Shown here in pieces: positions 6,132 through 7,502 of a stretch of 7,502 bases of DNA. The DNA is from a virus. Taxonomy: Duplodnaviria; Heunggongvirae; Uroviricota; Caudoviricetes. Numbering within the stretch: position 1 is the stretch's first letter; each line of letters starts with the position of its first letter. The stretch lies in IMG/VR virus record IMGVR_UViG_2778261666_000008; one strand, written 5' to 3'. The translations under genes and the position numbers were made by a program. The notes beneath the pieces are model-generated. The model was not told the DNA's origin and did no database searches. It worked only from the letters and a program-made list of their open reading frames with translations.

Positions 6132-7502
6132 ATGTTTATGAAAAAAATATTCGCAGCCTCTGTTATATTTGCAGTTTCAGCAAATACTTATGCATATAAT
6201 TCTTATAATGCCGGTGATAATAGCCAGGCAACTGATAGTAATGCGACAGCTATTGGTGCATATGCAAATGCTTCAGGTTCTTCTTCTACAGCAATAGGCG
6301 CTGTTTCAAAAACCGAAGGAGCCTATAATACTGCAATTGGTTCATATTCTTCATCTCAAGGTAACTCATCGTCAGCTATTGGCGCAAATGCAAATGTTGT
6401 TGGAAATAACTCGGTAGCCATTGGTTCATTTAGTAAAGTAAACGGTGATTCAGCTATAGCAAATGGTGCGGGTAGTGAGGCAGTCGCTAATTCTACAAGT
6501 GTAGGTGCTGCGTCTAAAGCAACTGGGGAGAATAGTGTTGCATTTGGCTCTTCCGCCCAGGCGACTGCAGGAGATACATTAGCTATTGGTGTAGGGGCTA
6601 CATCTACTGCAGAAAATGCTATCTCACTAGGCTCACAGAGTGTGGCTGAACATAATAATAGTGTTGCCATCGGCGGGGGAAGTACAACTGACAGAGAGTA
6701 TAGTGTATCTTTTGGGACGGGTAATACTAATCGACAATTGACTCATGTTGCCGCAGGTACTGAGGATACTGATGGTGTTAACGTTAAGCAGCTGAAAGAT
6801 TATACTGGGAATGAGATAGCTAAAAATAATACTGTAATTAATCAAAACATCAGTAATGCCAGGAATGAATCAATGGCATATACAGACCAGCAGGTTACCA
6901 AAAACAATGCTGTGATAAATCAGAATATCAATAATGCCAAGAATGAATCAATGGCATATACAGACCAGCAGGTTACCAAAAATAATGCTGTGATAAATCA
7001 GAATATCAATAATGCCAAAAGCGAATCAATGGCATATACAGATCAGCAAGTTACCAAAAACAATGCTGTGATAAATCAGAATATTAATAATGCCAAAAGT
7101 GAATCAATGGCATACACTGATCAGGAAGTTACGAAAAATAACGGCGTTATTAATAAAAACATACAATCAGCAAAACAAGAATCATTCGCATATACTGATA
7201 CAAAGTTTAACCAAATTGATGGGAAGATAAATTCAACATTTAAGCAGTTGAATGATAAGATAGAAGCTAATGCTAAAAAAGCTAATGCAGGTATTGCTTC
7301 TGTGGCAGCAATGACCAATATCCCGTATGTGAATAACCAGACATTTAGTGCCGGCGTTGGGGTTGGTAACTATAGAAACGGTAATGCAGTAGCTGTCGGT
7401 GTTCAATATAAACTTAATGAAAACACCAATATTCGTGCATCGTCTTCGTGGAATAATACTGATGGAGCAGTAGTCGGAGGGGGTATTGCTGTAGGTTGGT
7501 AA
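6132..7502 (+). CDS. Trimeric autotransporter adhesin, YadA-like (456 aa): signal peptide, head repeats, neck, repetitive coiled-coil stalk, C-terminal membrane anchor
   Basis: Sec signal peptide (MFMKKIFAASVIFAVSANTYA). Head with many NSxAIG / SxAxG repeats (YadA-like beta-roll). Neck-like motif ...QLTHVAAGTEDTDGVNVKQL. Asn-rich stalk with 26-aa tandem repeats. Gly/aromatic-rich C-terminal ~70 aa ending GGGIAVGW, typical of YadA-type anchors. Stop TAA at 7500-7502. Which subfamily (Eib-like, Saa-like or other) cannot be decided without a search. Confidence 0.9.
   Translation: MFMKKIFAASVIFAVSANTYAYNSYNAGDNSQATDSNATAIGAYANASGSSSTAIGAVSKTEGAYNTAIGSYSSSQGNSSSAIGANANVVGNNSVAIGSFSKVNGDSAIANGAGSEAVANSTSVGAASKATGENSVAFGSSAQATAGDTLAIGVGATSTAENAISLGSQSVAEHNNSVAIGGGSTTDREYSVSFGTGNTNRQLTHVAAGTEDTDGVNVKQLKDYTGNEIAKNNTVINQNISNARNESMAYTDQQVTKNNAVINQNINNAKNESMAYTDQQVTKNNAVINQNINNAKSESMAYTDQQVTKNNAVINQNINNAKSESMAYTDQEVTKNNGVINKNIQSAKQESFAYTDTKFNQIDGKINSTFKQLNDKIEANAKKANAGIASVAAMTNIPYVNNQTFSAGVGVGNYRNGNAVAVGVQYKLNENTNIRASSSWNNTDGAVVGGGIAVGW
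6821..7199 (+). repeat. Tandem direct repeats, 78-bp unit (26 aa), about 4.9 copies, inside the adhesin stalk coding region
   Basis: Full units start at 6867, 6945, 7023 and 7101 (GAATCAATGGCATATACAGA...), with partial units on both sides. The three central copies differ by only a few substitutions and encode NESMAYTDQQVTKNNAVINQNINNAK. Confidence 0.85.

Follow-up and report, generated by a model that had tools for sequence, protein, structure and literature searches.

The adhesin gene and its surroundings

The window, a 7,502-nucleotide stretch of Caudoviricetes DNA, ends in a reading frame on the forward (+) strand that encodes a YadA-like trimeric autotransporter adhesin of 454 amino acids (6138..7502), identified from the translation, Pfam and sequence matches to the Protein Data Bank (PDB). 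A further in-frame ATG is located at 6132 and the RefSeq orthologues begin at the equivalent of 6138. Directly behind the start codon, the sequence and an alignment of the 5' ends revealed a homopolymer of seven adenines (A7, 6141..6147, +). A probable signal peptide (MKKIFAASVIFAVSANTYA; 6138..6194, +) was judged by eye from the translation, and residues 1-20 had pLDDT values below 50 in the monomer model.

The head (6201..6734, +) is composed of YadA-type β-roll repeats, which were recognized in four stretches by Pfam YadA_head (PF05658; 2e-19, 69.7 bits), in the alignment to 1p9h and in the monomer model, where residues 22-178 formed regular short strands with pLDDT values up to 96. The neck and the start of the stalk follow (6735..6857, +; Pfam YadA_stalk, PF05662; 6e-08, 33.4 bits), with a YadA_stalk/HIM motif that includes THVAAGTEDTDGVNVKQLKDY. 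The PF05662 match corresponds to residues 202-242 of the 456-residue reading, and the segment overlaps the first unit of the repeat array at its end. A C-terminal coiled-coil segment (7212..7331, +), assigned by alignment to AtaA (9vnj) and to the anchor-proximal helices of YadA, precedes a YadA-type membrane anchor with four β-strands per chain (7332..7499, +; Pfam YadA_anchor, PF03895; 1e-07, 32 bits against a cut-off of 22.7; PDB 2lme). The PDB sequence matches were to BpaC, the YadA head (1p9h, 1.2e-21), the YadA anchor (2lme, 2.5e-06) and AtaA. In the monomer model, a single unbroken helix spanning residues 216-392, with pLDDT of approximately 80-90, covered the whole array, while the four anchor strands occupied residues 403-452. 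The protein thus has the features by which YadA-like type Vc adhesins are recognized, a YadA-type anchor and a β-roll head followed by a neck, and is, judged from its sequence, a YadA-like trimeric autotransporter adhesin that is predicted to form a homotrimer. Pfam, the PDB sequence matches and the monomer model all agreed with the preliminary description, which had placed the repeats in a stalk of the trimeric autotransporter type.

Upstream of the gene is an AT-rich non-coding region (5250..6131, unstranded) with 26-32% GC in the composition profile, part of which, from 5509 or from 5973/6046, is common to E. coli alleles. The matches returned by a promoter and terminator scan upstream of the gene were no more numerous than expected by chance.

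The gene occurs on several mobile elements (prophages, islands and plasmids) and across Escherichia species. Of the 29 E. coli orthologues, 11 were no longer intact, owing to a +G frameshift, an IS2 insertion, a 10-bp deletion or lengthening of the A7 tract (6141..6147) to A8, which shifts the frame and was present in three E. coli orthologues. Neither the whole protein nor its stalk-and-anchor part found a full-length orthologue when searched against a large protein database, and an exact look-up of six alleles returned none of them. A scan of one genome per species gave Proteus homologues and remote matches only, the Escherichia species representatives being without the gene, and a phage collection yielded nothing beyond short matches to Proteus phage tail proteins.

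The repeat array and its copy number

Tandem Repeats Finder reported a period-78 array from 6822 to 7138 (4.1 copies, 91% matches, no indels, score 473) and a second, period-156 row that extended to 7195. A repeat search of the window likewise found a 78-nt spacing with four copies in register. Examined unit by unit, the array consists of five complete 78-bp (26-residue) units between 6822 and 7211, in register with the reading frame 6132/6138-7502. U1 (KNNTVINQNISNARNESMAYTDQQVT; 6822..6899, +), the penultimate U4 (ending in AYTDQEVT; 7056..7133, +) and the diverged U5 (KNNGVINKNIQSAKQESFAYTDTKFN; 7134..7211, +) are present in every allele, and U2 (KNNAVINQNINNAKNESMAYTDQQVT; 6900..6977, +) and U3 (KNNAVINQNINNAKSESMAYTDQQVT; 6978..7055, +) are of the internal type, whose number varies among alleles. 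The 78-bp tandem repeats of the preliminary description are therefore real, but the flanking units that it regarded as partial, U1 and U5, are full length.

The number of identical positions per 78 was 70 for U1-U2, 72 for U2-U3, 71 for U3-U4 and 69 for U2-U4. U1-U4 have a mutual identity of 78-92%, adjacent pairs 90-92%. U5 agreed with the other units at 48-50 of 78 positions (approximately 63%), and the 78 nt flanking the array on each side at 25-34 of 78, the background value. Calling the central units near-identical was generous, since adjacent units among U1-U4 have 6-8 mismatches per 78 positions and exact in-register runs in the array reach at most 42 nt. The codon differences among U2-U4 were mostly synonymous (4 synonymous versus 1 not, 6 versus 1 and 6 versus 2), and a Y-T-D motif is found in all five units at a spacing of exactly 26 residues. 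The identical protein sequence is encoded by 10 independent public contigs, so that the array is no artefact of a single assembly.

Copy number was surveyed in 5,426 complete E. coli genomes and a plasmid collection. The survey gave 37 alleles, 29 from E. coli chromosomes, 7 from IncF plasmids and that of the window; 15 were verified by translation and a unit-by-unit listing, and the copy numbers of the other 22 were taken from alignment lengths only. The chromosomes carried five units in 23 cases, four in 3, three in 2 and six in 1, and the plasmids five units in 4, four in 2 and three in 1, so that five units dominate (28 of 37 alleles). The variation in repeat number that had been anticipated was thus found among orthologues and paralogues with 3, 4, 5 or 6 units, differing throughout by in-frame steps of 78 bp, and the comparison across strains did not return the same number in all of them. 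Among the listed alleles, the changes were exact, in-frame gains or losses of whole 78-bp units: A2 is EC11 without U3, C41 is EC11 without U2 and U3, and M24FEP is GF8 with one additional, identical internal unit.

The DNA on either side of the array barely differed between alleles of different length. GF8 (five units) and M24FEP (six) had no mismatch in 3600 nt to the left and none in the 1579 nt aligned to the right, A2 (four) and C41 (three) differed at 4 of 3600 and 5 of 3000 positions, and the plasmids pRHBSTW-00933 (four) and pRHB07-C17 (five) at 8 of 3600. These comparisons amount to at least two copy-number events per lineage in three lineages. Repeats may be collapsed or expanded in some of the assemblies, but three units and four units were both found in more than one independent assembly; the former is common to C41 (Russia) and ZYB62 and the latter to MB31 (Cuba) and STEC309 (China). 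Because five units dominate and the rarer states are common to unrelated isolates, the pattern looks like a slow polymorphism that accumulates as strains diverge rather than fast switching.

The internal units of the island-type alleles were 100% identical, with exact in-register runs of up to 261 nt. At 42 nt, the array of the window is among the less homogenised ones. The supposition that it is prone to expansion and contraction consequently held insofar as copy number varies, but this particular array is a poor substrate compared with its relatives. U2 was closest to the units of prophage-type alleles and U3 to those of island-type alleles.

Coiled-coil geometry and relation to known adhesins

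Right-handed stalks lie between the last neck and the anchor, contain YxD motifs in which x is usually T, and have 3.7-3.83 residues per turn (PMC2373917). In the window, the neck ends near 6857, the array occupies 6822-7211 and the anchor begins at 7332; YTD, with x = T, is present in all five units; the α-helix is continuous in the monomer model; and 26 residues in seven turns correspond to 3.714 residues per turn. The structural model is of a monomer, in which handedness and core contacts are not visible. In a Fourier analysis of this unit alone, the 3.71-residue hydrophobic harmonic was not significant, being reached by 300 of 1000 within-unit shuffles, and the strongest hydrophobic harmonic of this unit alone was 6.5 residues. 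Saa-type stalks are built from one pentadecad and one or two hendecads, with about half of the core positions polar (PMC13580157), and the units of the relatives are 30 (pKY178), 37 (Saa) and 41 residues (Proteus columbae) long, so that all four lengths, 26, 30, 37 and 41, are sums of 15 and 11. The strongest helical-range hydrophobic harmonic fell at 3.70-3.75 residues per turn in 4 of 4 unit types, and the T of the Y-T-D/N motif was at most 21° from the centre of the core face, again in 4 of 4. The earlier reading of the period as 15 + 11 is consistent with both publications and with this comparison of unit lengths. The asparagines of VINQNINN (unit positions 7, 9, 11 and 12), which had been likened to core layers, probably lie outside the predicted core face; a candidate polar core layer is formed by N2/N3 of KNN.

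The architecture of the protein is that of Yersinia YadA, with head, neck, stalk, anchor and YxD motifs. The identity was approximately 28-31% where the match was in one piece and 39-41% over the aligned pieces where it was in two (Y. enterocolitica). The match of the YadA stalk to the array was limited to U5 and the transition segment, and in this comparison no 78-bp DNA repeats of the present kind came to light in YadA. U5 and the residues that follow it aligned to the ES.YTD.KF.QL segment of the YadA fragments 3H7X, 3H7Z and 3LT7, an alignment that is exact in the motif (ES.YTD.KF.Q) and weak in score (E approximately 0.25). U5 therefore resembles the conserved YadA segment where the stalk turns from right- to left-handed coiling.

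Saa (autoagglutinating adhesin) of LEE-negative Shiga-toxigenic E. coli (STEC) is also a YadA-like trimeric adhesin of small size carried by a mobile element; its direct stalk repeats lie just ahead of the anchor, and each has a Y-T-D/N motif and is made of one 15-residue segment and 11-residue segments (PMC13580157). It is encoded on a pO113-type plasmid, and PMC4060028 describes five variants of the gene, the size of which varies between strains through repeat number. Saa differs in its N-terminal region and in its unit of 37 residues (15+11+11) as opposed to 26, and the two proteins are 33% identical over 322 residues; with this identity and these unit lengths, the gene of the window is not a Saa orthologue. 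Uncharacterised Saa-like "Yal" adhesins, encoded on plasmids and chromosomes of STEC, have been modelled as lollipop-shaped trimers without the saddle of Eib (Kotaka et al. 2026, PMC13534694), a report in which repeat-number variation is not discussed. The strain JNEC-KY180 from that report has an orthologue 96.6% identical to the gene of the window. The only adhesin of pKY178, the plasmid on which the same report places YalA, has 30-residue repeats and is just 39% identical to the protein of the window, and the name YalA was therefore rejected for the latter. Membership in the Eib group was also rejected, as the match to EibD (2xqh, 1.2e-05) was limited to the head and the start of the stalk, and a stalk-only search of solved structures gave weak matches only, with no Eib chain among them.

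Tandem stalk repeats whose number differs between strains or variants are also found in Haemophilus Cha and Bartonella BadA, where PMC9704523 and PMC8859334 relate repeat number to fibre length or to the exposure of the head. Both are unrelated in sequence to the protein of the window; a repeat of BadA is an entire neck-and-stalk domain, hundreds of residues long, and for Cha the functional effect of repeat number has been shown by experiment. In Periscope proteins, too, high-identity DNA repeats in the stalk alter the projection of an N-terminal functional domain. These are monomeric rods of independently folding repeat domains, and their definition explicitly excludes trimeric autotransporter adhesins (PMC9704523); with a trimeric-adhesin stalk whose units are helical segments of 26 residues, the adhesin of the window does not belong to them.

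Explanations of the copy-number polymorphism

The explanation that we consider probable is that the array forms the right-handed coiled-coil stalk of a mobile YadA-like adhesin, and that whole units are slowly gained and lost in frame. Each 26-residue unit would consist of a 15-residue and an 11-residue segment, together making seven helical turns at 3.71 residues per turn, and the Y-T-D of each unit would place T in the core with Y and D flanking it; we infer both the handedness and the register of the coil. Since the units are 78-bp direct DNA repeats, misaligned replication or unequal recombination could add or remove whole units without a change of frame. Three units would be kept throughout: U1, U4 and U5, the last being diverged and continuing into the anchor. 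The variation between alleles would then amount to 0-3 internal units, for a total of 3 to 6, and every unit would change the length of the stalk by approximately 3.9 nm, at 0.15 nm for each of its 26 residues. Through exchange within the array, the units of a given allele may stay more similar to one another than to their counterparts in other lineages, and the length polymorphism would build up slowly as strains diverge, with no rapid switch.

An explanation that is possible, though we doubt it, is that the polymorphism is real and has no functional effect, a side product of mutation in a repetitive coiled-coil gene that is under weak selection. The disruption of 11 of the 29 E. coli orthologues and the narrow range of 3 to 6 units fit this idea, as does Saa, in which repeat number did not correlate with adherence (PMC4060028). 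On the other hand, the differences between internal units are mostly synonymous, which suggests that the peptide sequence of the stalk is under constraint, every change keeps the frame as well as U1, U4 and U5, and the gene is maintained on several mobile elements and crosses species. It is unlikely that the array is a fast contingency device in which the number of units changes at high frequency within a population and mixed stalk lengths are under selection, in the manner of Periscope proteins or of Haemophilus Cha. Such a device could account for different copy numbers between identical or nearly identical flanks, in some alleles the perfect in-register identity extends over 183-261 nt, and PMC9704523, citing Sheets & St Geme 2011, connects variation in the peptide repeat number of trimeric adhesins with adhesion, biofilm and the exposure of the head. 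But the five-unit form prevails across continents and hosts, C41 shares its 3-unit state with ZYB62 and MB31 its 4-unit state with STEC309, and in the window the exact in-register identity does not exceed 42 nt and adjacent units are 8-10% different. We regard as still less likely the more specific proposal that stalk length is actively tuned within populations to the O-antigen or capsule of the host, with the A7 tract as an additional on/off switch; were it true, whole 26-residue units made of fixed 15- and 11-residue segments would come and go often enough to adjust the projection of the head whenever a prophage, an island, a plasmid or a different Escherichia species brings the gene into another host strain.

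Binding sites in the stalk are known in EibD, for immunoglobulin (PMC13534694), and in BadA, for fibronectin (PMC9602544), and the internal units are conserved as peptides, so the units could be conceived of as ligand-binding modules, the number of which sets the strength of binding and not the length. This is very unlikely: the stalk is without detectable similarity to that of EibD, as the match (1e-05) covers only the head and the first stalk residues, and conservation falls on residues, YTD and the I/V/M positions, that are expected to hold the coil together. Finally, the differences might be artefacts of assembly, with collapse or expansion of a 390-bp repeat whose 180-260 nt of perfect in-register identity exceeds the length of short reads. 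That appears highly improbable given that all of the records are from collections of complete genomes and complete plasmids, that three units were found twice on chromosomes and four in two chromosomal lineages and two plasmids, and that the variants are exact whole-unit changes in which the sequences of the remaining units match.

With slow, whole-unit gain and loss as the preferred reading, the array is an ordinary length polymorphism, as known from related adhesins such as Saa; repeat-number variation is already established for Saa, Cha and BadA, and the current understanding is unchanged. An uncharacterised Escherichia adhesin joins those trimeric autotransporters whose stalks change length by whole repeat units, and units of 26, 30, 37 and 41 residues as sums of 15 and 11 suggest that coiled-coil geometry limits the repeat lengths that can evolve. 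The alleles with 3, 4, 5 and 6 units, whose backgrounds hardly differ, constitute a natural series that could be used to test for effects of stalk length on adhesion, aggregation or serum resistance.

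The repeat array and its place in the adhesin

Tandem Repeats Finder located 4.1 copies of a period-78 repeat at 6822-7138, 91% matching and free of indels, as well as a period-156 row reaching 7195, and a separate repeat search found four in-register copies spaced 78 nt apart. In register with the ORF ending at 7502, the array consisted of five complete units on the plus strand, U1 (6822-6899), U2 (6900-6977), U3 (6978-7055), U4 (7056-7133) and U5 (7134-7211). Neighbors within U1-U4 were identical at 70-72 of 78 positions and U5 matched the other units at 48-50, while the 78 nt on either side of the array had only a background level of 25-34 identical positions. 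The unit identities were thus far above the flank background, well beyond chance, and the array is real. The preliminary description had called the central units near-identical, which is too strong given these values and a longest exact in-register run of 42 nt, and the flanking units partial, whereas U1 and U5 are both full length. The differences among U2-U4 were mostly synonymous, so that the repeat peptide is conserved.

In the 454-aa product of the ORF at 6132-7502 (likely start 6138), Pfam identified YadA head repeats, a neck motif and a YadA membrane anchor. A PDB sequence search matched the protein to solved chains of BpaC, the YadA head, SadA fragments, and the AtaA and YadA anchors. 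In the AlphaFold2 monomer model (mean pLDDT 72.9), a regular beta-roll head was followed by a helix, a short non-helical link and four terminal strands; the helix, residues 216-392, was unbroken and spanned the whole array with a pLDDT of about 80-90. The repeats therefore belong, as had been proposed, to the stalk of a trimeric-autotransporter-type adhesin.

Variation in repeat number among alleles

Units were listed by translation for 15 alleles, and for the others the copy number was taken from alignment lengths. Five units were found in 28 of the 37 alleles (23 E. coli chromosomes, four plasmids and the window), four units in five (three chromosomes, two plasmids), three units in three (two chromosomes, one plasmid) and six units in a single E. 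coli chromosome. Since the copy number is not uniform, the central idea of the preliminary description, that the stalk varies in length between strains, stands. The allele lengths changed by whole 78-bp units every time, with the frame kept. Every allele retained U1, the next-to-last "...DQEVT" unit and the diverged final one, and only the internal "...DQQVT" units varied, from 0 to 3 per allele. The A2 allele was that of EC11 minus U3, C41 was EC11 minus U2 and U3, and M24FEP was GF8 plus one further identical internal unit. Despite the different copy numbers, the flanks of GF8 and M24FEP had no mismatches in 3600 nt on the left and none on the right, those of A2 and C41 had 4 in 3600 nt (left) and 5 in 3000 nt (right), and those of two RHB plasmids had 8 in 3600 nt. 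Judged from these alignments, there were three lineages with at least two copy-number events in each.

The predominance of five units across hosts and continents and the recurrence of rarer states in separate isolates, three units in both C41 and ZYB62 and four in both MB31 (Cuba) and STEC309 (China), point to slow change. In island-type alleles, the internal units were 100% identical and the exact in-register runs extended over 183-261 nt; the 42-nt run of the window was among the shorter, with only the two 3-unit alleles having shorter ones. As substrates for recombination or slippage, the arrays differ greatly in apparent quality. The nearest relatives of window U1, U2 and U5 were prophage-type units and those of U3 and U4 were island-type, and the window array looks mosaic. 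The internal units of one allele can be identical, whereas same-position units differ between lineages at 4-13 of 78 positions, the pattern that would be expected from repeated exchange inside the array.

Proposed coiled-coil register of the units

In trimeric adhesins, right-handed stalks are described as having a repeat of 15 residues or another period in the range of 3.7-3.83 residues per turn, as invariably containing a YxD motif in which x is usually T, and as being confined to the segment from the last neck to the anchor (daTAA, PMC2373917). According to reviews, YxD stabilizes right-handed coils and helps to initiate folding. The window array lay in this neck-to-anchor segment, YTD was present in all five of its units, and 26 residues in seven turns amount to 3.71 per turn, inside the stated range. 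The proposed 15 + 11 construction of the 26-residue unit also agrees with a 2026 account of Saa-type stalks in which one pentadecad is joined to one or two hendecads and roughly half of the core positions are polar (PMC13580157). The pKY178 adhesin (39% identical to the window protein; L017 12026-13354) has stalk repeats of 30 aa, Saa (33%; L016 658-2040) of 37 aa and a homologue from Proteus columbae (54%; L019 3001-4374) of 41 aa, lengths that can be written as 15 + 15, 15 + 11 + 11 and 15 + 15 + 11. In all four unit types, the strongest helical-range hydrophobic harmonic was at 3.70-3.75 residues per turn, and its phase centered the T of Y-T-D/N on the core face, flanked by Y and D/N. Against this reading, the hydrophobic signal at this period was weak for the 26-residue unit alone, with 300 of 1000 shuffles reaching it, as polar residues at several core positions would lead one to expect.

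Based on the monomer model and the Fourier phase rather than a trimer structure, the core-facing residues in the 15 + 11 register would be N2/N3, I6, I10, K14 (with A13 alongside), S17, T21 and V25. The recurring Asn residues at unit positions 7, 9, 11 and 12, earlier likened to core layers, would then face outward, and any Asn layer would be that of "KNN". U5 and the following residues matched the conserved YadA segment whose structure was solved as the right-to-left transition, ES.YTD.KF.Q, weakly (E about 0.25), which would account for U5 being diverged and never lost. In E. coli NWU_4 (L006) and NWU_1, a 3-bp insertion in unit 4 adds a Met (KNNAVMINQ); the resulting 27-residue unit would disturb the register.

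Related adhesins, genomic setting and gene disruption

The closest precedent is Saa, a protein of the same kind with the same stalk position and 15/11 construction, whose size varies by repeat number; its low identity and 37-aa unit rule out that the window gene is Saa. PDB searches with the whole protein and with the stalk only excluded an Eib protein. The gene may be one of the Saa-like, uncharacterized "Yal" STEC adhesins listed in 2026 (PMC13534694), and JNEC-KY180, a strain of that study, has an orthologue. The nearest general concept is the Periscope class, although its definition leaves out trimeric adhesins. Stalk length variation of this kind is already known, and the window gene is an additional example for which the main point of the preliminary interpretation was correct and checkable.

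The rise of a helix is 0.15 nm per residue. One unit should add about 3.9 nm (26 x 0.15 nm), so the alleles would span roughly 12-23 nm in the repeat part of the stalk. By analogy with Cha and BadA, it is plausible that stalk length alters adhesion, aggregation or immune recognition; adherence by Saa was uncorrelated with repeat number (PMC4060028).

Upstream of the adhesin, the window carries a phage-type integrase (1-1113) and an excisionase (1159-1452), both on the minus strand. The integrase gene may be degenerate, since its Pfam match stops after the first 77 of the catalytic domain's 172 positions. Also upstream are an ORF of 233 aa containing an invasin D4 domain (2588-3289) and, at about 3630-4810, an IS3-family element whose ORFs (3632-4459 and 4495-4806) lie on the minus strand. 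The gene is immediately preceded by about 900 bp of AT-rich non-coding DNA (5250-6131, 26-32% GC), partly kept in E. coli alleles from 5509 onward; a promoter scan of this upstream region gave no more matches than chance. The identical protein was encoded on 10 public contigs, and on the one examined the island lay between fliE and zinT/yedDEF/amyA. The core flank (yedDEF, amyA; L018 11000-16200) was 90.6% identical to E. coli and the adhesin gene (6138-7502) up to 96.7%, which suggests a non-coli Escherichia host and movement of the gene between species.

The gene was rare in E. coli (29 of 5,426 complete genomes), where it occupied a prophage end beside uspF/ompN, a second prophage or an island adjoining asrABC. 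Copies about 78% identical occurred on IncF plasmids in both E. coli and E. albertii. Nothing but the last unit and the anchor was left in the truncated copy on plasmid pJNE132847_1 (L015 2950-3387), where they are fused to an N-terminal part of unrelated sequence.

Eleven of the 29 E. coli orthologues were disrupted in four independent ways, suggesting that the gene is often dispensable there: five genomes had a +G frameshift, three an A8-tract frameshift and two a 10-bp deletion, and in M24FEP an IS2 insertion truncated the anchor. The sites were near window positions 6287 (L007) and 6679 (L009), in the anchor (L010) and at the start (L008). In the window, an A7 run (6141-6147) directly follows the likely ATG (6138); its equivalent was the frameshifting A8 in GF8, GF75 and GF161, and A6C in the EC11 and RM11911 types. 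The tract may act as an on/off switch through slippage, or the A7/A8 difference may be an error in sequencing the homopolymer.
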